In this document: in pieces, positions 1 through 15,806 of the stretch
Numbering within the stretch: the first letter of the stretch is position 1
Layout of the letters: the number at the start of each line of letters is the position of its first letter
Notes under the pieces: generated by a model
What the model saw: only the letters and a program-made list of their open reading frames with translations
What the model was told of the DNA's origin: nothing
The model's database searches: none
Program-made: the position numbers and the translations under genes
Virus record (IMG/VR): IMGVR_UViG_643348547_000009
From: a virus
Taxonomy: Duplodnaviria; Heunggongvirae; Uroviricota; Caudoviricetes
Reading direction: 5' to 3' (one strand)
Length of the DNA stretch: 15,806 bases

Positions 1-1461
1 ATGAAAAAATTACTGCGTCTTTTTTTCCCGCTCTCGCTGCGGGTACGTTTTCTGTTGGCAACGGCAGCGGTAGTACTGGTGCTTTCGCTTGCCTACGGAA
101 TGGTCGCGCTGATCGGTTATAGCGTCAGTTTCGATAAAACTACGTTTCGGCTGTTACGTGGCGAGAGCAATCTGTTCTATACCCTTGCGAAGTGGGAAAA
201 CAATAAGTTGCATGTCGAGTTACCCGAAAATATCGACAAGCAAAGCCCCACCATGACGCTAATTTATGATGAGAACGGGCAGCTTTTATGGGCGCAACGT
301 GACGTGCCCTGGCTGATGAAGATGATCCAGCCTGACTGGCTGAAATCGAATGGTTTTCATGAAATTGAAGCGGATGTTAACGATACCAGCCTCTTGCTGA
401 GTGGAGATCATTCGATACAGCAACAGTTGCAGGAAGTGCGGGAAGATGATGACGACGCGGAGATGACCCACTCGGTAGCGGTAAACGTCTACCCGGCAAC
501 ATCGCGGATGCCAAAGTTAACCATTGTGGTGGTGGATACCATTCCGGTGGAGCTAAAAAGTTCCTATATGGTCTGGAGCTGGTTTATCTATGTGCTCTCA
601 GCCAATCTGCTGTTAGTGATCCCGCTGCTGTGGGTCGCCGCCTGGTGGAGTTTACGCCCCATCGAAGCCCTGGCAAAAGAAGTCCGCGAACTGGAAGAAC
701 ATAACCGCGAATTGCTCAATCCTGCCACAACGCGAGAACTGACCAGTCTGGTACGAAACCTGAACCGACTGTTAAAAAGTGAACGCGAACGTTACGACAA
801 ATATCGTACGACGCTCACCGACCTGACCCATAGTCTGAAAACGCCACTGGCGGTGCTGCAAAGTACGCTGCGTTCTCTGCGTAGTGAGAAGATGAGCGTC
901 AGTGATGCTGAGCCGGTAATGCTGGAGCAAATCAGCCGCATTTCACAGCAAATTGGCTACTACCTGCATCGTGCCAGTATGCGCGGCGGGACATTGCTTA
1001 GCCGCGAGCTGCATCCGGTCGCCCCACTGTTGGACAATCTCACCTCGGCGCTGAACAAAGTGTATCAACGCAAAGGGGTCAATATCTCTCTCGATATTTC
1101 GCCAGAGATCAGCTTTGTTGGTGAGCAGAACGATTTTGTCGAGGTGATGGGCAATGTGCTGGATAATGCCTGTAAATATTGCCTCGAGTTTGTCGAAATT
1201 TCTGCAAGGCAAACCGACGAGCATCTCTATATTGTGGTCGAGGATGATGGCCCCGGTATTCCATTAAGCAAGCGAGAGGTCATTTTCGACCGTGGTCAAC
1301 GGGTTGATACTTTACGCCCTGGGCAAGGTGTGGGGCTGGCGGTAGCCCGCGAAATCACCGAGCAATATGAGGGTAAAATCGTCGCCGGAGAGAGCATGCT
1401 GGGCGGTGCGCGGATGGAGGTGATTTTTGGTCGCCAGCATTCTGCGCCGAAAGATGAATAA
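1..1461 (+). CDS. phoQ: Sensor histidine kinase PhoQ of the PhoP/PhoQ two-component system, complete 486 aa
   Basis: ATG at 1, TAA at 1459-1461. Two hydrophobic TM segments flank a periplasmic domain with the acidic cluster EDDDDAEM; H-box [11 protein letters not shown]; ATP-binding G-boxes DDGPGI and GQGVGLAV. Sequence matches E. coli PhoQ as I remember it. Confidence 0.97.
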
Positions 1462-1584
1462 ATATGTCCTTTTATCACTATATCAAGACAAACCATTGAT
1501 TTAATTAAATAATCTTCACTGCAAAAAGTGCCAAAAATCGCAAATTGACTACACCATTAACTACACCGTTCGGTGCACCGTATG

Positions 1585-2287: not shown

Positions 2288-3949
2288 TTACACCCCGCTA
2301 AATTCTTCCAGTTTCTGGCGGTGGCTGTCGCTTATATCAAAAGCAAAATCCTCATGCTCTGCCTGAAATGTACCAAACGCCATCAGTGCCGCTACGCTCG
2401 GGTCTATCTTGTTCGGTGATTTTTTCTTGTTCGGCTTGATATTGGCGTTCGCGTCACTCTGCATCACGACGTTACTCATCGACCAGGACAACACCGGATC
2501 GCCACGATGCACAATCACCCTGCGGTTAACAAAAACTTCGAACGATTTCGCCGCCGGACTGAATCTGAGGTAGGTTTGCGGGAACGGCTCCACCTCAAAG
2601 CCTGCCCCCTGTAATTGCGTTCTCAGGTGCGTGGCGTTCCACGTATCGAAGCCCACCAACCTGATATTAAATTTCTCGGCGTCCTGCATGATGTCATCTC
2701 TGATCCGGTCGTAATCAATGCAGTCGCCAGGCGTTGTGCATATCCAGCCCGCTTTAGCCCACTGGCGATAGACAGCGCGATTTTTATTGGCTGGGTTCTG
2801 TAGCTGGAACTCCGGCAGATAATGACGGGAAACCAGCATGATATTTTTACCGACCGGAAAGGCATAGCATACGCTGGAAATATCGCTGGTTGATGATAAG
2901 TCCAGCCCCGCGTAACACTCCTGACCGTGTAAATCTTCCTCCGTGAACGTTCCGGTACACTCAGCCCATGCACCATTACCCATCCACGGGGTAGTCCCCT
3001 GACACCAGATATTAAATCGCTTTGTCATCATCTCCACCCACTGCGACGGAATACCCCGCGCTTTCTGGATGGTTGAGGCCAGTTTTTCACGATCGACGGA
3101 AACATCGATGTTAGGGTTAGCCTTTATCCACATCGCCGGATCATCAACCTCGTTTTCGTCGTCCAGTTCGTAAATCAGTACAAAAATTGAATCGTTGACC
3201 TCTTCGCCGTCCAGGATCTGGCAGCAATAATCATAGTGCTGCTTACAGGCTGAAACGACGTTACTGCCCGATGTGGTAATGGCAAATAACAGCCCTTCGG
3301 GACGTGCGCCCATCCCCAGCTCAAGCGCGGAATAAACGCCGTTATCGGGGTGTAGGTGGTATTCGTCCACGATAGAAAGACTGGGGTTTGTCCCCTCGAT
3401 GGTTGCTGCTTTTGCTGCCAGCGGCTTTAACAGGCTGTTGCTTTTCGGGTGTATCACCTTATGCGCCTGAATATTCACCCGCCTGCGTAACGGTCGGGAT
3501 AAAAGGCACATCTGACGCGCATCATCAAAGACGATCCGCGCCTGGTCACGGCTCACCGCTGCGGTGTAGATATCCTGCTGACCGTTCTCCATAATCAGAA
3601 ACCAGTTAGCCAGAATCGCGGCGGTCGTGGATTTCGCATTTTTGCGCGGCACTTCGATAAAGGCGCTCGTGTATTTGCGCCGTCCGGTGGCCTTAACCTT
3701 AAAGCCGAGGATGCACGCAAAGGCGAACTGCTGCCACGGCTCCAGCTCAATGGGTCTGCCACGCATCGGTCCTTTTACGTGCGGGCACACCCTGGAAAAG
3801 GCAATAAACCGCTCCACAACCTCACGATCGAACGTGTAAAGGGGGCTTTTAAGGTCCGAAAAGTACCGTTTAACAGCCTGTTTTAACCGTTTACAGGCCG
3901 GAATTTTGCCCGTTTTTACGTCTTCTGCGTACTTATTCCAGGCGGTCAA
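2288..3949 (-). CDS. Phage terminase large subunit (553 aa)
   Basis: Walker-A-like PRKNAKST in the N-terminal ATPase region and an acidic nuclease-type C-terminal half; follows TerS directly. Start is TTG at 3949 with a GAGGA Shine-Dalgarno 5 nt upstream and overlaps the TerS 3' end by 17 nt; there is no in-frame ATG nearby. Confidence 0.88.
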   Translation of the reverse strand: MTAWNKYAEDVKTGKIPACKRLKQAVKRYFSDLKSPLYTFDREVVERFIAFSRVCPHVKGPMRGRPIELEPWQQFAFACILGFKVKATGRRKYTSAFIEVPRKNAKSTTAAILANWFLIMENGQQDIYTAAVSRDQARIVFDDARQMCLLSRPLRRRVNIQAHKVIHPKSNSLLKPLAAKAATIEGTNPSLSIVDEYHLHPDNGVYSALELGMGARPEGLLFAITTSGSNVVSACKQHYDYCCQILDGEEVNDSIFVLIYELDDENEVDDPAMWIKANPNIDVSVDREKLASTIQKARGIPSQWVEMMTKRFNIWCQGTTPWMGNGAWAECTGTFTEEDLHGQECYAGLDLSSTSDISSVCYAFPVGKNIMLVSRHYLPEFQLQNPANKNRAVYRQWAKAGWICTTPGDCIDYDRIRDDIMQDAEKFNIRLVGFDTWNATHLRTQLQGAGFEVEPFPQTYLRFSPAAKSFEVFVNRRVIVHRGDPVLSWSMSNVVMQSDANANIKPNKKKSPNKIDPSVAALMAFGTFQAEHEDFAFDISDSHRQKLEEFSGV

Positions 3950-4289: not shown

Positions 4290-4340
4290 GCTTATTTTTC
4301 GTCAGATTATTTTTCAAAAAATTCCCGTGCATAAAAATTT

Positions 4341-4400
4341 GGGGAGGCGGTCGGTGCCCGGCGGGGTCGGGTTTGTCCTGAAAACGCCCCCCACCCCGTC
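4341..4400. other. Candidate cos / packaging recognition site in the HNH-TerS intergenic region
   Basis: GC-rich tract ggggaggcggtcggtgcccggcggggtcgggtttgtcctgaaaacgccccccaccccgtc, with a G-rich left end and a C-rich right end in inverted symmetry, lying between HNH and TerS where HNH-dependent cos sites usually sit. The first 10 nt (GGGGAGGCGG) resemble the start of the P2-type cohesive end GGCGAGGCGG, which I recall from memory. Confidence 0.35.
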
Positions 4401-4577
4401 ATACAGCCTCATCAGCGATTGCGGAAACATTCCATAACCTCGCGGTCACGGTCGGTTAATCGCTTCGCTGTGATGCGTTCTGCGCGTCCTGACGCTTTAT
4501 CTTTATGCCCTGTTTCCTGTGTCTTCCATGCGTCACGCTGCCTTATAAGTCCACGGATAAGGCGGTTTTGTTCCCGC

Positions 4578-7472: not shown

Positions 7473-8645
7473 TTAACCGCCGTTTTTCATCTCGAGGACT
7501 TTTATCGCGCGGGAGTCAACAACCCCGCCGCCGATGTATTTGTCCGTGTGTACCTTGTAGAAACCCGGCTCTGTAATGTTGTCCGGTCGGGTACGAATAC
7601 CCGTTTCATGGTCAACGATGAAATAACCGCGCTTAAAGTCACCGACAGCCAGCGGCGTTTTGCCTTTGCCGATGTCCGGCATACTTTCCAGGTAATAAAC
7701 AGGACGGCCCAGCAATGTGTCAGGTGCGCCCTCTTTGAGGCTGTCACGCCATACGTAATCACCGCTCTGGTTTTTCAGCTTCTGCAATGCTGCCGCTGTG
7801 CTCGAGTTCATCACCCATACGGCGTTCTTACGGTATTTCGCTTTCAGCTTGTAGAGGATGTCGATCAGTTCGTCCGCTGTAATGGCGGCTTCGGCTGCTG
7901 CTACCATTTTTTCAATGGTGCCAAAGGCGCGGGTTTTGTCGTTGGTTAGATCTCGGTTGTAACTCAGGAAACCTTTCGGCTTGCCAGTACCATTACCATT
8001 TACAAAATCATCTTCTTCGGTCGTGGCGAACGTATCGGCGATTTCAGACGATAACCAGCCCAGTACGTCCACCTCTGAAAAATCCAGAATTTCCTGTGTG
8101 GTTTTCGGGTAGGCATAGATCGGGTTAAGTTTGATGCTTACGCGCTCAACTTTCGGGGTGTTGGTTTCGTTACGCTTGCTGCCCTCGGTTCCATAATTTA
8201 CAGCCGCGCCACCTGTGGAAACCAGTTTCTGATATTCGTTTGATTTCGCCGTTTTCACGGTCGCAATCATTCGCATGACGCTTTCATCACTCAGTAACCG
8301 CATGACCTCGCGATCAAGCTCAGGGATAACGGTATAGCCACCGTCCTTGCCGCTGTTGCTAGTGGTGGATAATGAGCGAACGTCACCCGTTACGATGTAA
8401 TTGCGAAGTTCTGCGGGGTCAGTGGTCTGGCTGGCTTTACCTGGCTTGCTGCGCTCTTCGTCTGCAATGGCTTCAAGGCGGGAAATGTCTTTATCGAGGG
8501 ATTCAGCTTTAGCGCGTAATTCGTCAAATTTTGCGCCCTCAGCATCGTTAAGACTGCGGTTTTCTTTTTCCGCGTTCTCCAGCATGTCGCGCATCTGATT
8601 TTTAATGGCGGTTTTCTGCTGGCGTAATTCGATTATTCTCGGCAT
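7473..8645 (-). CDS. Major capsid protein, HK97 fold (390 aa)
   Basis: N-terminal coiled-coil scaffold-like delta domain (ELRQQKTAIKNQMRDMLENAEKE...), about 390 aa, adjacent to the prohead protease; ATG at 8645. Confidence 0.92.
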   Translation of the reverse strand: MPRIIELRQQKTAIKNQMRDMLENAEKENRSLNDAEGAKFDELRAKAESLDKDISRLEAIADEERSKPGKASQTTDPAELRNYIVTGDVRSLSTTSNSGKDGGYTVIPELDREVMRLLSDESVMRMIATVKTAKSNEYQKLVSTGGAAVNYGTEGSKRNETNTPKVERVSIKLNPIYAYPKTTQEILDFSEVDVLGWLSSEIADTFATTEEDDFVNGNGTGKPKGFLSYNRDLTNDKTRAFGTIEKMVAAAEAAITADELIDILYKLKAKYRKNAVWVMNSSTAAALQKLKNQSGDYVWRDSLKEGAPDTLLGRPVYYLESMPDIGKGKTPLAVGDFKRGYFIVDHETGIRTRPDNITEPGFYKVHTDKYIGGGVVDSRAIKVLEMKNGG

Positions 8646-8682
8646 AAAAAAAGTCCTGGGGTTAAGTAAGGAACTCCAGGAC
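8646..8682 (-). promoter_or_regulatory. Terminator-like hairpin plus T7 tract directly abutting the capsid start codon
   Basis: Minus strand reads GTCCTGG-(16 nt loop)-CCAGGAC-TTTTTTT-ATG. The only Shine-Dalgarno candidate (AGGA) is inside the 3' arm of the stem. Confidence 0.4.
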
Positions 8683-8859
8683 GCGGCAAAAACTCAACCG
8701 TTTTTCATAAGGAAATCAGCAATCGCACCGATCGTTTTCCCGCCTGGTAATGAATATTGGCGAGAACATTAACAGGCGGAAAAGTGGCCCCAGCGTCCTG
8801 GCACCACGGGCGAGAATAATCATGATTCAGTTCGGGTAAAATATGCCGATCCGGTCAGC

Positions 8860-8885
8860 GAACAACGTGGAACAACCACGAACAA
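8860..8885. repeat. Three GAACAA direct repeats at exact 10 bp spacing in the packaging-operon upstream region
   Basis: Read directly: cGAACAAcgtgGAACAAccacGAACAAataa; shares a 15-mer with 1586-1600. Confidence 0.6.
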
Positions 8886-8904
8886 ATAATTTACAAAACA
8901 TGAC

Positions 8905-8925
8905 AAAAAGCCGGATTGCTCCGGC
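8905..8925 (-). terminator. Candidate rho-independent terminator after the perC-like gene
   Basis: On the minus strand, GCCGGA-gcaa-TCCGGC (6 bp stem, tetraloop) followed by TTTTTGTCATGTTTTG, starting 7 nt after the perC-like stop. Confidence 0.5.
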
Positions 8926-8932
8926 TGTGTGA

Positions 8933-9205
8933 TTATCTGTCCTGGTAATTTCGCCATATTTCATCACCAGCACCATCCATACCCATTTCGGCATAAGTGC
9001 GATCGACCGCCTTTTTCAGGTCTCCGTAATTATCCGGCGGCTCCGGTGGCCTCTGTGCCTTCCTGGAACATTCCAGCCGTCGCATCGTGATGTGATGCCG
9101 TTCCTTGTCTGTCTCCACCAGTTGCATGACTTCACCCCATCGCGCCGACGCTCTCCGGTAAAAGCCTTTCGCCTCCAGTTCTTCCGCTATGCGGTCATGT
9201 ACCAT
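8933..9205 (-). CDS. PerC-family transcriptional regulator-like protein (90 aa)
   Basis: N-terminal pattern MVHDRIAEELEAKGFYRRASARW matches my recollection of PerC-family proteins; strong Shine-Dalgarno (GAGGGGGG); last gene before the head module. Confidence 0.55.
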   Translation of the reverse strand: MVHDRIAEELEAKGFYRRASARWGEVMQLVETDKERHHITMRRLECSRKAQRPPEPPDNYGDLKKAVDRTYAEMGMDGAGDEIWRNYQDR

Positions 9206-9214
9206 CGCCCCCCC

Positions 9215-9625
9215 TCAGAACGGAATATCATCACCGTAAGGGTCATCGCCTCCCGCTGGTGGCTGATTACCCTGTGTGCCTGTGGTCTTGCGTCGGCTCC
9301 CACCAGGTCGCGCCGTTCTGGCACTGATTACGCTGTCTGCAATAACCTGCCAGCCCTGCCGCGTTTCGCCGTTCTGGCCTGTCCACTGGCTTACCTGCAT
9401 GTTACCCGCCACGCTCACCAGCTCGCCTTTGTGGTGTTTTGCCAGTGCGTCGGCCTGTCTGCCAAACGCCAGGACGGATAACCACATCGTCGCCTGTCCG
9501 TCATCTGCCTGATTGCACGGCAGGGGGACCGCCATGCTTGCCATAGCCATTTGTGTGCCCTTGCTGGTGGTCTTTAACTGCGGGTCAGCCACCAGCCGCC
9601 CGTAAGCGGCTATCTGTGCTGTCAT
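9215..9625 (-). CDS. ssb: Single-stranded DNA-binding protein (136 aa)
   Basis: OB-fold-like N-terminal region alignable with E. coli SSB, a Gly/Pro/Gln-rich linker, and the acidic C-terminal tip DDIPF. Confidence 0.8.
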   Translation of the reverse strand: MTAQIAAYGRLVADPQLKTTSKGTQMAMASMAVPLPCNQADDGQATMWLSVLAFGRQADALAKHHKGELVSVAGNMQVSQWTGQNGETRQGWQVIADSVISARTARPGGSRRKTTGTQGNQPPAGGDDPYGDDIPF

Positions 9626-9928: not shown

Positions 9929-10154
9929 GTCTACCTTATCTACCTTACTGGCTCTCATGCCAGTAATGGCGCGGCTTTCAGCGGGGTAGAGTGCTTTTAT
10001 CCACTATCTACCCCGTATCTACCTCCCTGTCTGATTCAGGTAAAATCAGGTAGAGAGGGTAGATAGTAGGTAGACAGTGAAAAAAGGCTGTCTACCTAAG
10101 TTAATATACTGAATTAAATGTATTTTTCTTTACTCAGGTAGACAGGGTAGACAG
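9929..10154. repeat. Candidate replication origin: about 11 iterons with core GGTAGA / TCTACC in both orientations, plus an AT-rich stretch
   Basis: TCTACC at 9931, 9940, 10007, 10018 and 10091; GGTAGA at 9985, 10049, 10058, 10069, 10138 and 10147. AT-rich segment at about 10100-10130. Located immediately 3' of the primase gene. Confidence 0.65.
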
Positions 10155-10167
10155 CCATTGCAAAAAA

Positions 10168-11916
10168 TTATAAAAACGCGTCGCAATCGTCTGTTGTTAT
10201 TGCGTTAGTCTGCGTTACTCCCTTAACTTTCCGCGTAATATATTCATGTCCGTAAACTTTCGCGGCTGGCTTCATAGCCTTGCCAAAGTCATTTACGTTT
10301 AGCGGTTTGCTCCTGCCTGCGTATGCCATAAACGCCAGATAGACGCGGTAAAGGCTGTTTCTGGTCGTGTACTTCACTGAATCGCCACCGCCACCCATCA
10401 TCAGGCCGCGCGCTTCCTCCAGAAAATTCAGGAACTGGCAAAACTCAATAACCGGATCCGTCTGTTGCTTTATTGCCAGTGCTTCATCACCGTCACGCTG
10501 TTCCAGTAGTAAAGCCCGTGCCTTCTCAGGGTCGGTAAAGTTCGCCAGCAAGCGGCGGATAATGACAGGGATTTCAGCCGCGATCTTTTCCGGTAGCTCC
10601 CTGTCTTTTTCTGCCTCGCTTACGATATTGTCGAAGCGGAAAATAACCCGACGACGTGACACGCCTCCGGCCCGTTCGGTGAATATCATCGGGTTGTTAT
10701 TGGTCGCCAGCACCACCGCCCTGATTACCGTAGTGAAACGCTTTTCATATTTCGGGTTGATTTCCACGGGGTCGCCGCCCGTGATTTTCTTGATGCCCGT
10801 GCCTTCGCCTGTATATTTCGGCTGGTCTGCCAGGACGATAAGACGACTCCCGACAACCTGCGCACGCCCACCAGCATCATCAAGCGATGTCATTTCCGCG
10901 CTTACCGTGTTTTGTTTCCCCGCTAAAAGGCTGGCGATGTGGGTGAATGTACTTTTGCCGCTCCCGCCGTCTCCGGTGGCCTCAATAAACATCTGCCAGT
11001 CGTACCGGTTCGCCATAATCATGTACAGCGCGGCACATATACGCATCATCTTGCGCGAGTCTTTTCCGGCTGCGTGCTCAAGCCATTTATGAAAGTTTGG
11101 CGCGTTATCGCGGATGTTCTCCCCTGGTGCTGGTGGCGTGTACTCAATGCCGTTGTTCGTGGTGATCCAGTTCTCCGGCGTGTGCGGGGAAAATTCCCCC
11201 GTTTTCAGGTCAAGCGCACCATTGGCGAACGGCAGCAAATCGCCGGACGGCTCGCCCATTGGTTCGGCAATAACTTTTAACGCTTCCACGGCGTTATTGA
11301 TTACGCGCTTGCTGAAAGTGGCCCTGTGCTCTGAATAGATCGCCACCATTTCGCGGCTAAGTTCCATTGTGCTGACCGGACACCATACCCCGCCGCGCCA
11401 TACGTGAACGATTTCACTTTCCGGATGCACACAAACGCCATCAAATCGACCAGCAAGCATCTGTGCGCGCTCACTGTCTGCCATTTGTGCCAGTTGCGTA
11501 TTTTTCTGCTCCGGCATGGTAAGCCCTGCGGCAATATTTTCACGCTCAGCATTCAGATAGCGCCGCCAGTTTTCACACTTCTGGACGTGCATTCCTTCGG
11601 GGTAAAAATTTGCGTCCTGAATATCTGCCGCCGCCAGCTTCTGACCAATCTTTTTGGTCTCCACCAAATCCAGTTCTCCGGCCTGGTACAGCCTTACGCG
11701 TTTTTTTCCATCCGGAACAATTTTCAGTGCATCAAGTTCGGCAAGCTGATTTGGCCCAAGCCACACAGGCGGCACATTATCGCCGGATGCGGGGCCATCC
11801 TGCTCCTGCCATTGTTTCGCGTGCGACCAGGCATCACTACCCGCGAAAATAATTACCTCTGTGTCTTTGTGTTTTATTCCGCGTGGCTGTTTTTTTACGT
11901 TCGGTGCCAGTTTCAT
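10168..11916 (-). CDS. Phage/plasmid primase-helicase, P4 family (582 aa)
   Basis: Walker A motif GDGGSGKST in the C-terminal NTPase domain and a primase-like N-terminal half; ATG at 11916 with an AGGGG Shine-Dalgarno; followed by the iteron region. Confidence 0.88.
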   Translation of the reverse strand: MKLAPNVKKQPRGIKHKDTEVIIFAGSDAWSHAKQWQEQDGPASGDNVPPVWLGPNQLAELDALKIVPDGKKRVRLYQAGELDLVETKKIGQKLAAADIQDANFYPEGMHVQKCENWRRYLNAERENIAAGLTMPEQKNTQLAQMADSERAQMLAGRFDGVCVHPESEIVHVWRGGVWCPVSTMELSREMVAIYSEHRATFSKRVINNAVEALKVIAEPMGEPSGDLLPFANGALDLKTGEFSPHTPENWITTNNGIEYTPPAPGENIRDNAPNFHKWLEHAAGKDSRKMMRICAALYMIMANRYDWQMFIEATGDGGSGKSTFTHIASLLAGKQNTVSAEMTSLDDAGGRAQVVGSRLIVLADQPKYTGEGTGIKKITGGDPVEINPKYEKRFTTVIRAVVLATNNNPMIFTERAGGVSRRRVIFRFDNIVSEAEKDRELPEKIAAEIPVIIRRLLANFTDPEKARALLLEQRDGDEALAIKQQTDPVIEFCQFLNFLEEARGLMMGGGGDSVKYTTRNSLYRVYLAFMAYAGRSKPLNVNDFGKAMKPAAKVYGHEYITRKVKGVTQTNAITTDDCDAFL

Positions 11917-12217: not shown

Positions 12218-12445
12218 TTATTCTCCGGTGTGCTGCGCTTTATTATTCTCGTGAATTGCCATCACTGTATTTAATTCATTAATAACAGGCGTTAATAGCG
12301 TACGCACGGCAGAAAACATCATTGAATCAGATTCATCGCCACTTTCCGGCACATCAATTAACTTAAGTAGTAATGCGTCCATTTCCTTTGCGCGGATTAA
12401 TGCGTTTTCAGAATGAACAAGAACATCAAAGGGTATTTTATGCAT
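12218..12445 (-). CDS. Hypothetical 75 aa protein
   Basis: ATG at 12445 preceded by AGGGGGGGA; start overlaps the last codons of the upstream Icd-like ORF (ATGCATAA). The longer 109 aa reading in the ORF track has no Shine-Dalgarno. Confidence 0.5.
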   Translation of the reverse strand: MHKIPFDVLVHSENALIRAKEMDALLLKLIDVPESGDESDSMMFSAVRTLLTPVINELNTVMAIHENNKAQHTGE

Positions 12446-12902
12446 GACTCCCCCCCTGGCGAATACGGGCGACAAAAATAAGATGTGCGTGCGGCAGCTG
12501 TGCACGTGCTTCGCGCTCAGTGGCAGCGGTAACGGTGAATATTGCAATACTGTCTGTCAGGCACTGCATAAAGCGCCAGACAAAATAAGGGCGTGCGAAT
12601 ACAGCCATGTGAAAGGCTCCCAGATGAATTTTAAGGAGTCTCGCTACTACGCTGCTAAACATGGTGGCGAGACGTAACAGGGTTAGCAGACTGGTCATCT
12701 GGAAACCAGCGAGCACAAAGGCTCCCCCGTTACGCCCCGCCATAATGCGGGTATGGGTAGGTTTACGGACACAAAAAAACCGCTTATCGGATGTGGGCGG
12801 CTGTCCGCCAGATGTATTCAGGCTGCTAAACCCGGTCGCCATGTGGGCGACGGGGGAAGCATACAGCCCCGTGATAATTTTTTGCAAGCGGTTTTTACGC
12901 AT
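12438..12902 (-). CDS. Icd-like (P4 cell-division-inhibitor family) domain protein, copy 1; full ORF is 154 aa, and an internal start at 12608 would give 56 aa
   Basis: C-terminal WRF...ATEREARAQ...FVARIRQGGSHA is paralogous to the C-terminus of copy 2. The ATG at 12902 has an AGGGG Shine-Dalgarno and overlaps the copy 2 stop; the ATG at 12608 has a GGGAG Shine-Dalgarno. Confidence 0.45.
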   Translation of the reverse strand: MRKNRLQKIITGLYASPVAHMATGFSSLNTSGGQPPTSDKRFFCVRKPTHTRIMAGRNGGAFVLAGFQMTSLLTLLRLATMFSSVVARLLKIHLGAFHMAVFARPYFVWRFMQCLTDSIAIFTVTAATEREARAQLPHAHLIFVARIRQGGSHA

Positions 12903-13098
12903 GATGTGACCCCTGACGAATACGGGCGGCGAATACCATCACGCAGCCAGCCGGGGATTGCTGGCGTGCCTCCTGTTCGCTGGTGGCCTCAATGGTAATC
13001 ACGCGCGGTTGTGCCGTGCTCAGGGCGATAAAACGCCAGATGTATTTATTCAGGTTGTGCGAATCCCGCCCTTGCGGGTGTGTGGTATGATTTAACAT
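12895..13098 (-). CDS. Icd-like small protein, copy 2 (67 aa)
   Basis: ATG at 13098 with GAGG 5 nt upstream; ...KYIWRF...ATSEQEARQQ...FAARIRQGSHHA. The long upstream in-frame extension (353 aa ORF) is Cys/Arg-rich and antisense to plus-strand genes, so it is treated as non-coding. Confidence 0.5.
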   Translation of the reverse strand: MLNHTTHPQGRDSHNLNKYIWRFIALSTAQPRVITIEATSEQEARQQSPAGCVMVFAARIRQGSHHA

Positions 13099-13192
13099 AG
13101 CTACCTCGATACTTTCGCTATCGTTGGTGGTTAGAAGCCCCGTTACTGCTCCTACAGTGCGGGGTTTCGTCGTTTCTACACCTTGCCTTAAT

Positions 13193-13249
13193 AAGGTGTT
13201 GAACACCAATTTAAATCGAGGTGTTAAACACGTCAAGTGTTGAACACTT
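13193..13249. promoter_or_regulatory. Three palindromic operator-like sites GTGTT-N-AACAC in the divergent control region
   Basis: GGTGTTgAACACC at 13195-13207, GTGTTaAACAC at 13221-13231, and the perfect 15 bp site AAGTGTTgAACACTT at 13235-13249; centres are spaced 25 and 16 bp apart. Confidence 0.55.
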
Positions 13250-13268
13250 ATTTTTTTTCCTGCATACT
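13240..13268 (+). promoter_or_regulatory. Candidate sigma70 promoter for the plus-strand RHH gene, overlapping operator 3
   Basis: TTGAAC at 13240-13245, a 17 bp spacer containing a T8 run, and CATACT at 13263-13268, about 30 nt upstream of the ATG at 13298. Confidence 0.3.
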
Positions 13269-13297
13269 GCATTTGTTTTTTATGAAGGGTGCTCAAC

Positions 13298-13477
13298 ATG
13301 GCGACAAAAGCAGTAAACGCAAAATCACAAACAGTTGCGGCAAGGGTTCCACATGAAGTTATGAACAATGTTGAGGCGGTAAAAATGCCCGGCGAAAGTA
13401 CAGGGCAGTTTGTTACAGCTGCATTAAAGCGGGAAGTTGAATACCGCCAGCGTCGCAAGGCCAAAGAATCAGAATAA
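13298..13477 (+). CDS. Small ribbon-helix-helix-like DNA-binding protein (59 aa), candidate island regulator
   Basis: ATG at 13298 (the ORF track starts at an upstream GTG at 13289); AAGGG 9 nt upstream. The pattern ARVPHEVMNNVEAV...GESTGQFVTAALKREV fits a beta-strand, helix, helix (Arc/CopG-like) layout. Confidence 0.5.
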   Translation: MATKAVNAKSQTVAARVPHEVMNNVEAVKMPGESTGQFVTAALKREVEYRQRRKAKESE

Positions 13478-13534
13478 TCACTATCAGCGCCGTGGCGTGA
13501 GGTACTCCGGCGCATTGCTTTACAGGTCAGTACT

Positions 13535-13744
13535 ATGAGCAAAAAACACCGATCAGCAGATGAGATTTTTGCAGAACAACGAAGATTGCTTTTGCAAAGT
13601 ATCATTTCACGCCAGCAAGAGAAGGCGCGAGCTAAACAAATGCCACCAAATACAGAACCAGCGCCTACAAGATTTGCGCTTGATGACTTTCTCGATAAAC
13701 ACCCCAGGGTAATGAAAGCAAACAAAAACCGCCCACCAGGCTGA
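13535..13744 (+). CDS. Hypothetical 69 aa basic protein, second gene of the plus-strand module
   Basis: ATG at 13535 with a weak Shine-Dalgarno; co-directional with the RHH gene and followed by a strong terminator; no family recognised. Confidence 0.35.
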   Translation: MSKKHRSADEIFAEQRRLLLQSIISRQQEKARAKQMPPNTEPAPTRFALDDFLDKHPRVMKANKNRPPG

Positions 13745-13839
13745 TCACATTGCCCACCAGCCTGATAGCGGCTATCATCCCCGTGCTTATGTTTGAGATC
13801 ACACACACAAACGGCGCAGCGGGTTATCTGTTCAGAAAG

Positions 13840-13870
13840 GCGGCTCCATTTCGGGGCCGCTTTTTTTATT
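13840..13870 (+). terminator. Rho-independent terminator of the plus-strand module
   Basis: GCGGCTCC-atttc-GGGGCCGC (8 bp stem with one G-U pair) followed by TTTTTTTATT. Confidence 0.6.
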
Positions 13871-14013
13871 CCTGAAAAACCCCAATTTTGTTGTTTTTCA
13901 GTTTCACCAGGGCGAACGAATCCCCGCCCACGTTCTGGCGTATATTCAATCTTCATGGTTATAGCTCTGTGTTCAGATGATTGATGTGTGGCGGCTGCGT
14001 GCCGCCAGCGTGA

Positions 14014-14202
14014 TTAATGAACTGCCTTGCAGCTATCCTTCCAGGCCAGAACCTCGGATAAAGACCAGCCAACGGAACGACCGCCAAGTTTACGACGTGA
14101 TGGGAATTGTCCGGCCTTTTCCAGGCGGTAGCGACACGTACGGCTAAGGCCGGTTAGTTTTTCGCATTCTTTTTCACGTATAAACCGATCAGTGCTTAAC
14201 AC
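14014..14202 (-). CDS. alpA: AlpA-family phage transcriptional regulator (62 aa)
   Basis: HTH segment LTGLSRTCRYRLEKAGQFPSRRKLGGRSVGWSLSEVLAW typical of the AlpA family; GTG start at 14202 with an AAGGGGG Shine-Dalgarno 5 nt upstream; immediately downstream of int. Confidence 0.8.
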   Translation of the reverse strand: MLSTDRFIREKECEKLTGLSRTCRYRLEKAGQFPSRRKLGGRSVGWSLSEVLAWKDSCKAVH

Positions 14203-14396: not shown

Positions 14397-14576
14397 GCTA
14401 TTTAAAGAGTGATTCGCTAGTGTATAAAAAACCAGTAACACATTAAAAATCAGCTACTTATAAATCCGTACACTTTTTCGCCTCTTGTTCGTAGTTGTTC
14501 CGCATTGTTGCTCATTGTTGCACGTTGTATCTGTTCGCATATCCAGTATGCGCATACTGAAAAAACACGAAAAAAA

Positions 14577-15806
14577 TTATTTTCTTCTGGCTACTGGTAG
14601 CGTGGTTACGTTTTCATGTGTTCCCGCCAGTATCCCTAACCGCTCCGTCCACATATCCAGCGCATTGCGTTTAGCATCCAGATAACGGGAATGATTATAA
14701 ACTCGCTGCATTCCTGGCATCTGGTGGCCTGTAAGCTGCTCCACGACGTGAGGATCCACGCCTAAATCGCTCAGCATCGTTGTAAAGGTGCGCCGGATGT
14801 CATGTAGTGACCAGTGAGGGTGATTTAGCCTCCTGTGCGCTAATCTGCCGTACTGCGACACGCTTGTTTCCTGTTTCACTTCCCCCAGCAATAAGCCCGT
14901 GTGCCTGTTCTGCTCCACCAGCTGCGTGACGAACGGCAGTATTGCTTCCGGTATGGGCCGGAATATTGCCACCTTCGTTTTGCTGTGTTCTTTCGGCACG
15001 GTCCAGAGCATTTCGGTAAAATCCCACTCGCTGATCTCCGATAACCTCAGTTCTACCGTCCGGCATCCGAACACAATCAGGAGGCGGATTAACGCGATGT
15101 AGTAGGGGGAGAATATTTTTTTGTCCAGTGCCTGCAATAATTCGCCCAGTTCTTTGGTGCTTAAGACACGCTCGCTTATATCCGGTTTTTTCCCAACGTC
15201 CGCCACACTCATATCATCAAGAACGTTGCTGATTGCATAGCGCCGCCTCCGGCAGAACTTAAGCGCCTGTTTGCACGTCTGTAGCAAGAATCCGGCAGTA
15301 ACAGGCGTTCGCTTTGCCACCTGGTCAAAACAGGCCAGCCAGTGCCGTAGCTCGCATTTATCCAGCGGCATAGCACCAATGTGCTGTATTACGTGATTAT
15401 TAAGGCGCTTTTTCAGGGCGGCATAATCCACGCGGTTTTCCTTTGCGTACGACTCAAGCCAGTAGGTGAGCGCATCGCCAACCGTTACCGGCTTTAACGC
15501 TTCCTGTACGGTGTAATTAAGCTCATGACGTGGATTTTTCCCCTCTGCCAGCCATGCGCGACACTGGGCGGCTTTTTCCCTGGCTGATTTCAGGCTCAGA
15601 TCAGGATAATTTCCCAGCTTAATGCGTTCCGGTGGTGCCCCCCTTCCCGTTCCGGCCCTGTAAGTGAAATACCAGGTTAAAAGGCCACTGGTTGAATGCC
15701 TGACGCTCAGGTTTCCACCGTCATTAAGAAAGGCTGTTTTTTGGGCGGGTGTGCCGTTGATTTTCCTCAGCTGTGTATCGCTCAGTTTGTTAAGTGCTCT
15801 GCTCAT
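14577..15806 (-). CDS. int: Site-specific tyrosine integrase, P4-type (409 aa)
   Basis: ATG is formed by the last three bases of the window. N-terminal arm-binding-like domain, and a C-terminal catalytic region (...HDIRRTFTT...YNHSRYLD) consistent with the tyrosine recombinase R/H/R/Y arrangement. Confidence 0.93.
   Translation of the reverse strand: MSRALNKLSDTQLRKINGTPAQKTAFLNDGGNLSVRHSTSGLLTWYFTYRAGTGRGAPPERIKLGNYPDLSLKSAREKAAQCRAWLAEGKNPRHELNYTVQEALKPVTVGDALTYWLESYAKENRVDYAALKKRLNNHVIQHIGAMPLDKCELRHWLACFDQVAKRTPVTAGFLLQTCKQALKFCRRRRYAISNVLDDMSVADVGKKPDISERVLSTKELGELLQALDKKIFSPYYIALIRLLIVFGCRTVELRLSEISEWDFTEMLWTVPKEHSKTKVAIFRPIPEAILPFVTQLVEQNRHTGLLLGEVKQETSVSQYGRLAHRRLNHPHWSLHDIRRTFTTMLSDLGVDPHVVEQLTGHQMPGMQRVYNHSRYLDAKRNALDMWTERLGILAGTHENVTTLPVARRK

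Follow-up and report, generated by a model that had tools for sequence, protein, structure and literature searches.

P2 Cox is both an excisionase and a transcription regulator, and it activates the P_LL promoter of satellite P4 from upstream cox boxes. The sites of lambda Xis lie on one arm only, and to our knowledge lambda Xis has no role as a late-gene activator. Recombination directionality factors (RDFs) bind head-to-tail and cooperatively to direct repeats one helix turn apart, with about three adjacent sites needed, and RDFs including Vis bend att DNA (PMC7498355). In lambda, three head-to-tail Xis monomers occupy the phased repeats X1-X1.5-X2 between the Int arm site P2 and the core (PMC7498355). 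Some RDFs act at promoters besides att, among them 186 Apl (PMC7498355) and TorI of KplE1; in the latter system (TorI/IntS), attL carries blocks of excisionase sites, among them three sites separated by 2 nt, which alternate with integrase arm-type sites ahead of the integrase gene (PMC2951348).

Gram-negative PICIs have AlpA as their master switch. EcCICFT073 shares int and alpA with EcCIEDL933; its AlpA activates the AlpA promoter region when tested in a reporter strain, and AlpA overexpression alone leads to int-dependent excision and replication (PMC6092414). Mutation of alpA abolishes induction and transfer of EcCIEDL933, and particles of that island were purified with the island driven by alpA overexpression. 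Vis of satellite P4, a remote AlpA homologue, is required for excision (PMC6092414), although P4 lacks capsid genes. In helper-embedded PICIs, a doubled motif (tgTGTATTGCa x2) lies co-oriented on both att arms, 81 and 132 bp from the core, and its binder, integrase arm domains or AlpA, was left open by the authors (PMC10111431). We found no published description in the searchable literature of the sites reported here or of AlpA DNA targets in PICIs.

The window, the whole 15,806-nt stretch that we analysed, is a capsid-forming PICI (cf-PICI) of the EcCIEDL933 type between phoQ and roxA. Its first base is the phoQ ATG and its last is the ATG of the tyrosine integrase gene, the genes in between are all on the minus strand, and the island extends from ~1470 to just past 15806. 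As expected of a cf-PICI, int, alpA and a replication gene are co-oriented, the HK97-type head/packaging module is complete and the island measures ~15 kb; family searches of its gene content returned no tail or lysis genes. The capsid gene is followed by genes for protease, portal, head closure, connector, HNH, TerS and TerL, and between alpA and the PerC gene lie, on the minus strand, an Icd/C4-RNA zone, DUF4222, the D5-type primase and SSB. The landmarks are as follows.

14577-15806, minus strand: int, tyrosine integrase (Pfam Arm-DNA-bind_3, an N-terminal arm-DNA-binding domain, and Phage_integrase)
14014-14202, minus strand: alpA, 62 aa (Pfam Phage_AlpA, PF05930, E=5.4e-17)
10168-11916, minus strand: D5-type primase gene
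8933-9205, minus strand: PerC-family gene (Pfam PerC, E=2.7e-43)
7473-8645, minus strand: HK97-type major capsid gene, first of the packaging operon (Pfam Phage_capsid, E=2.7e-71)
2288-3949, minus strand: TerL gene, last of the packaging module
1460-1469, plus strand: att core, ~AAATATGTCC, marking the island's left end where phoQ stops (phoQ stop codon; from both CE10 junctions against the empty K-12 site)

Three arrays of phased hexamers lie in the window and a fourth just outside it.

1585-1614 (units to 1610), plus strand: array A, on the int-distal att arm, AAACAAcgtg GAACAAatag ACACAAgaaa
8860-8889 (units 8860-8885), minus strand: array B, in plus-strand reading GAACAAcgtg GAACAAccac GAACAAataa, hexamers starting at 8860, 8870 and 8880
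14481-14530, minus strand: array C, five units at 10-bp spacing, ATACAAcgtg CAACAAtgag CAACAAtgcg GAACAActac GAACAAgagg
Just outside the window, upstream of int: array D, 19249-19288 in the corresponding E. coli CE10 locus (L003)

Array B had been picked out in a sequence-only reading as three GAACAA hexamers at 10-bp spacing between the perC terminator and the capsid gene, and both the hexamers and their placement proved exact; on the coding minus strand, the array reads as three perfect TTGTTC units 10 bp apart plus TTGTAA. That reading also described a second copy of the same build at 1585-1610. The 15-mer AACAACGTGGAACAA is indeed identical at 1586-1600 in array A and 8861-8875 in array B, and the flanks align as claimed (77% identity over 35 nt for the right flanks), but only one of the three hexamers of array A is an exact GAACAA, the outer two being AAACAA and ACACAA. 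Arrays C and D, two of the four, had been overlooked. Array C begins 47 bp past the int stop, ~280 bp upstream of alpA, and is inverted relative to A, B and D. The window is 100% identical to CE10 over 8600-9250, and the CE10 island also lies between phoQ and roxA; the two differ in several array C units, which in CE10 (17870-17919 of L003) read ATACAAcgga GAACAAtgtg AAACAAcgtg GAACAAccac GAACAAgagg, and in small indels in the head genes. The int-alpA stretch is closest to that of strain 14EC001 (99.2%).

Spacing is exactly 10 bp in all three window arrays and in array D, with three units in A (four with a degenerate one), three plus TTGTAA in B, five in C and four in D. The three-hexamer pattern, allowing up to 3 mismatches, gave five overlapping matches in three places of the window, against 0.03 expected and none in 200 shuffles, and the 14-mer ACAACGTGNAACAA occurs once in each of the three window arrays (0.00 expected). 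A scan for at least three ACAA cores at 10-11 bp spacing detected no array in the window besides A, B and C, none in 68.7 kb of flanking chromosomal DNA and nothing further in the 24.6-kb CE10 stretch. The feature is real and conserved, and is almost certainly an array that binds a protein. Like RDF operator arrays, these are direct repeats spaced by one helix turn, and each site has at least about three adjacent units, in line with the three-operator requirement (PMC7498355). Because ACAACGTGNAACAA is common to all four arrays, one binder for all of them is the simplest reading.

To place these sites among related islands, we compared five islands spanning the identity range (L085-L089) together with the EcCIEDL933-type O157:H7 island (L093), which has the same insertion site as the window and the same four arrays. 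The int-alpA region is present in 903 of 5426 complete E. coli genomes at 75-99% identity, and the array B block in 450 of the 5426, where it is never annotated. The compared islands occupy four insertion sites and vary in cargo and in replication genes (primase, RepA helicase). All of them have arrays A, C and D, with array B confined to the cf-PICIs; the four sites are retained even in E. coli PICIs with int-alpA identity as low as 75-78%. Conservation in related elements, on which the sequence-only reading had made its proposal depend, was thereby borne out, three or four sites recurring in 8 E. coli/Shigella islands; the motif search that it suggested in islands and phages returned arrays from the islands and no match to the array B block in 50,697 phage genomes. 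When the int-alpA spacer was aligned across 8 islands, array C proved invariant only at its ACAA cores, every 10 bp, with variable spacers between them, and array B of three further islands (L090, L091 and L092) keeps its hexamers with different spacers, a pattern suggesting purifying selection on the phased cores of array C and the hexamers of array B. The AlpA proteins of L001 and L085-L088 differ from that of the window at few positions.

Array B is specific to the HK97-type operon, and classical PICIs with lambda-type capsid genes had no array upstream of the capsid gene. Among 80 cf-PICI loci of other genera, we found few exact-5-mer periodic arrays, and the int-alpA arrays of these genera are built of different motifs (AACCC, TTTTGCA, CTATTGTC) that have no counterpart in front of the capsid gene. 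The four-site layout is thus demonstrated only for the E. coli/Shigella AlpA type. Two prophage-embedded cf-PICIs (L002 and L091) keep array B, and their AlpA-like proteins are more diverged; in L002, neither the one arm examined nor the surroundings of the alpA-like genes held AACAA arrays. Both of these islands are inserted in a prophage terL gene, that is, helper-embedded, and each has two tandem AlpA-like genes. L002 carries the published doubled motif, GCAATACA-N4-GCAATACA, at 1003-1024.

The surroundings of array B have the layout of a promoter region.

8909-8926, minus strand: intrinsic terminator of the PerC gene, which bounds the regulatory region
8886-8896, minus strand: motif TTGTAAATTAT (coding-strand reading), abutting array B
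8813-8840, minus strand: predicted weak sigma-70 capsid promoter, -35 TTTACC (8840-8835), 16-bp spacer, -10 TATTCT (8818-8813)

On the coding strand, TTGTAAATTAT is followed by about three 10-bp units. The motif is common to cf-PICIs of both repeat classes described below, precedes the capsid gene by ~204-257 bp in 18 loci that represent many genera, and is separated from a conserved leader hairpin (GTGGCAC) by 87-88 bp in 23 distinct cf-PICI sequences. In these other cf-PICIs, the last unit is followed after 17-19 bp by a -35 element (TTTACA/TTTACT) and, 16 bp on, by a -10 element (TATGTT/TATCTT). The window has its own, different leader with a matching layout, its last unit lying 19 bp from the predicted -35. 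The predicted promoter matches the consensus at 8 of 12 positions by manual count, and a consensus promoter scan near array B found no site of at least 9/12; near array C it gave distant candidates only. Such a weak promoter fits an activator-dependent capsid start, predicted near 8806; array B would then lie ~55-90 bp upstream (about -55 to -90), with its units centred near -57, -67 and -77. A plus-strand promoter after array B or A was dropped because it has no -10. Of 40 exact matches to the array B block in IMG/VR contigs, 32 are placed 217-222 bp ahead of a capsid start. In the O157:H7 island, an extra gene with its own copy of the perC terminator is inserted upstream and array B still adjoins the capsid leader, and in diverged cf-PICIs a conserved block stands between two unrelated flanks, as at a mosaic boundary.

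The conserved leader hairpin of the other cf-PICIs is GTGGCACTCAGACGTGAGCCGCCAC (loci L001-L092 compared), and the window does not have it. Its own capsid leader (8646-8810, minus strand) is predicted to fold strongly (MFE -63.1 kcal/mol, z = -4.4). Its last hairpin, GUCCUGG...CCAGGAC, includes an AGGA Shine-Dalgarno, with U7 and the capsid AUG coming next, and could serve as a terminator/attenuator or as a mask of the ribosome-binding site. Rfam gave no match on the arrays or the capsid leader.

Arrays A and D each sit in a 75-bp module, and the two copies are co-oriented and 76% identical. On the coding strand, the module consists of four TTGT(T/G)(C/T)-type units, 7-17 bp of intervening sequence and GGTGTAGT-N4-GGTGTAGT. 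The doublet beside array A is as follows.

1548-1567, plus strand: doubled motif ACTACACC-atta-ACTACACC (GGTGTAGT on the coding strand), adjoining array A

An identical doublet lies beside array D upstream of int, and the doublet is confined to the arms, ~90 and 146 bp from the att core. In form and position, it resembles the doubled motif of helper-embedded PICIs, for which the doublet only was described; phased AACAA arrays and copies near alpA or the capsid operon are absent from that account (PMC10111431). The suggestion that the element-end copy, 1585-1610, is att-associated agrees with its position ~120-150 bp inside the island end and with the matching module on the int-side arm. As is usual for RDF sites, the units lie in the att arm next to candidate integrase arm sites, ~90-150 bp from the core, and array D is arranged like lambda X1-X1.5-X2. 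The GGTGTAGT doublet would represent the integrase arm-type sites and the phased units a second class of site.

Which protein reads the units is indicated by a change in their sequence between islands. Wherever a locus has an AlpA-family gene, whatever its subtype, the units after TTGTAAATTAT are of the T(T/C)GTT(C/T) type; in five loci without AlpA, which have only an HTH_17 excisionase-type gene (TIGR01764), the units after TTGTAAATTAT are TAC(T/C)C. These TAC(T/C)C islands come from Kluyvera, Kosakonia, Citrobacter, Leclercia and Erwinia, and in three of the five (L007, L010 and L084), a TACTC doublet also lies beside the island's own integrase arm doublet (GGTATCCT x2). A hybrid island, L092, separates the regulator from the integrase: its integrase is 23% identical to that of the window and 74% to that of L007, and its arms carry TAC(C/T)(C/T) plus GGTATCC, whereas its AlpA is 72% identical to that of the window and its array B is a perfect TTGTTC x3 with altered spacers. 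Array B therefore follows AlpA, not the integrase. Across the loci, the repeat type of array B tracks the small regulator gene and not the integrase, PerC, replication or terminase genes, the loci being phylogenetically related and the association counts accordingly not independent; in the other genera, TGTT-type units are short and degenerate, and single matches there are weak evidence.

AlpA itself is a protein of the kind expected to bind such arrays, small and of the winged-helix excisionase type. It matches PHROG 2790, 'excisionase and transcriptional regulator', and PDB 8c3t, 'AlpA family phage regulatory protein' (E=2.2e-6), and screening of the window ORFs revealed no further excisionase-like genes. 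AlpA of P. aeruginosa was considered as a model and set aside, being a larger antiterminator that uses a single GGGACG element and a different mechanism.

We consider it probable that the four arrays are operators of AlpA, acting as a Cox/Apl-like excisionase-activator that couples excision, self-expression and capsid production. From the positions of the arrays and their co-variation with the regulator gene, we infer AlpA binding, activation at array B and an excisionase role at arrays A and D. AlpA would bind head-to-tail, one monomer per 10-bp unit on one helix face, nucleating at ACAACGTGNAACAA, with ACAACGTGGAACAA as candidate AlpA-bound DNA. At arrays A and D it would shape the att arms for excision, beside the GGTGTAGT candidate integrase arm sites; array C would be its autoregulatory operator, mediating the known AlpA autoactivation; and at array B it would act as the switch for the capsid/packaging operon at the weak sigma-70 promoter. 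A single protein would thereby couple excision, self-amplification and capsid synthesis. Several points weigh against this reading. Array C is inverted relative to B and lies ~190 bp upstream of the sole consensus-like alpA promoter (TTGCCA-17-CACAAT), the arrays occupy both att arms where lambda Xis sites occupy one, and int-promoter activity was reported as unchanged by AlpA (PMC6092414), though array D lies upstream of int. The prophage-embedded cf-PICIs, moreover, keep array B with more diverged AlpA-like proteins and, in the L002 regions examined, no AACAA arrays.

Among the closest described parallels is 186 Apl, likewise a small DNA-binding protein on about three or more direct repeats 10-11 bp apart, with sites at att and at promoters (PMC7498355), as proposed here for AlpA. 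The binder here would belong to the Phage_AlpA family and not to Cox/Apl, however, and its arrays lie on both att arms; moreover, Apl represses pR/pL, whereas the proposed AlpA targets, its own gene and the capsid operon, would be activated. The TorI sites of KplE1 differ in motif and repress the integrase promoter, and that study describes no TorI site upstream of a morphogenesis operon (PMC2951348).

The int product carries an Arm-DNA-bind_3 domain and two of the arrays lie in att arms, which raises the alternative that the arrays are integrase arm-type sites and that the capsid-upstream copy is one such site gone astray or left as a relic. Lambda P'1-P'3 and other consecutive arm sites likewise form direct repeats spaced by about one turn, and the left flank of array B weakly resembles the arm module (GGCATATT against GGTGTAGT). 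Nonetheless, we regard this explanation as unlikely. Each arm offers a better candidate in the doubled 8-mer GGTGTAGT, which is arm-restricted and provides four half-sites for a tetramer; this doublet changes among islands with ~50%-identical integrases while the TGTT-type units persist, and L092 combines an unrelated integrase and other arm motifs with a perfect array B. Arm sites would be restricted to the arms and co-vary with the integrase, but the motif recurs near alpA and upstream of the capsid gene, and there is no evident reason for the integrase to bind beyond the stop codon of its gene and ahead of the capsid operon. The 15-mer and flank similarity that B has in common with arm array A, and its location at a mosaic boundary, with flanks that may both be unrelated from one island to the next, could alternatively mean that array B is functionless, a leftover duplication of the att-arm module or a recombination joint kept by hitch-hiking. 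This is decidedly unlikely given that the hexamers of B are perfect while its spacers diverge, that 450 genomes have the block and its distance to the capsid start is fixed, and that its units hold fixed positions in the 87-88-bp promoter scaffold and match in type the regulator of the island.

For array B, a different binder could be envisaged: the PerC-like protein, a host response regulator of the OmpR/PhoB/TorR type, or a helper-phage protein. A PerC-family activator gene lies immediately upstream of the array, and natural induction requires helper phages. Response regulators recognise direct repeats of 10-11 bp, and the TGTTC of the array B units also occurs in the TorR box CTGTTCATAT. 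Of the regulators that the sequence-only reading had listed for these direct repeats, the comparative evidence favours AlpA and speaks against the PerC-like protein and a host response regulator. Islands L001, L088, L090 and L092 keep array B without PerC; a host response regulator would entail a constant motif independent of the island regulators, yet the units switch between TTGTTC and TAC(T/C)C with the AlpA or Xis gene of the island across hosts from related enterobacterial genera; the array B block is missing from the phage genomes searched; the same 14-mer ACAACGTGNAACAA occurs in the att arms and beside alpA; and alpA overexpression alone is reported to drive the island. Together, these points make such a binder very improbable. 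Direct repeats are also frequent at terminase and initiator sites, and array A lies downstream of terL, but the idea that the arrays are small terminase (packaging) sites or replication initiator iterons seems scarcely credible: A, C and D stay identical whether an island has another small-terminase gene or lacks an annotated one, and whether its replication genes are of the primase or the RepA-helicase type; a separate set of GGTAGA repeats just downstream of the primase gene (10048-10154) probably supplies the iterons; and the cos region likely lies elsewhere, in the HNH-terS gap (4290-4577).

Returning to AlpA as the binder, the switch of unit type at array B allows a more far-reaching and more tentative proposal, which we regard as possible though somewhat doubtful. 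The capsid promoter may be a plug-in late promoter, in which an invariant TTGTAAATTAT scaffold, 87-88 bp from the leader, receives a swappable three-unit cassette that matches the regulator of the island (TTGTTC for AlpA, TAC(T/C)C for the HTH_17 Xis type) and was copied from the island's own att-arm module. The RDF would thus have been co-opted as a single switch for excision, self-induction and capsid production.

The arrays provide mutable candidate operators at the four places that need AlpA input, and they would directly explain how excision, replication and cf-PICI particles can all result from overexpressing alpA and nothing else. They are useful to the satellite field, and the principle itself, RDF-type operator arrays, is already known. 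The signature of ACAACGTGNAACAA plus phased ACAA cores marks the island ends and the packaging-operon start in ~450-900 of 5426 complete E. coli genomes, and could aid annotation and the engineering of PICI-based delivery vehicles.

Several further features of these islands were observed. Near the island end, the 17-mer GTGGTCATTATGACCAT, which contains a palindrome, occurs exactly at ~1755-1771 and ~1850-1866, 95 bp apart, in an unannotated stretch (1670-1990); a plus-strand ORF at 1670-1900 was rejected as a gene under array A, having no family match and no RefSeq annotation. The GGTAGA-unit repeats at 10048-10154, AGGTAGAGAGGGTAGATAG and AGGTAGACAG, lie immediately downstream of the primase stop (10168) and are probably replication-origin iterons. 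In the Icd-like zone, a C4 antisense RNA lies at 12660-12747 on the minus strand (Rfam RF01695, 72.7 bits against a gathering score of 45), an immunity RNA of the P1/P7/P4 type within the island. In the same zone, a 48-nt direct repeat (12429-12476 and 12886-12933, 75% identical) covers the starts of two minus-strand ORFs, 12438-12902 and 12895-13956, which suggests a local duplication. Finally, in the three Xis-only islands with a TACTC doublet next to int, a LexA-box-like TACTGTATAAATAACCAG lies directly upstream of that doublet (~2255-2275 in L007, ~1695-1715 in L010, ~2440-2460 in L084), hinting that the integration module of tRNA-integrating, Xis-only cf-PICIs may be under SOS control.
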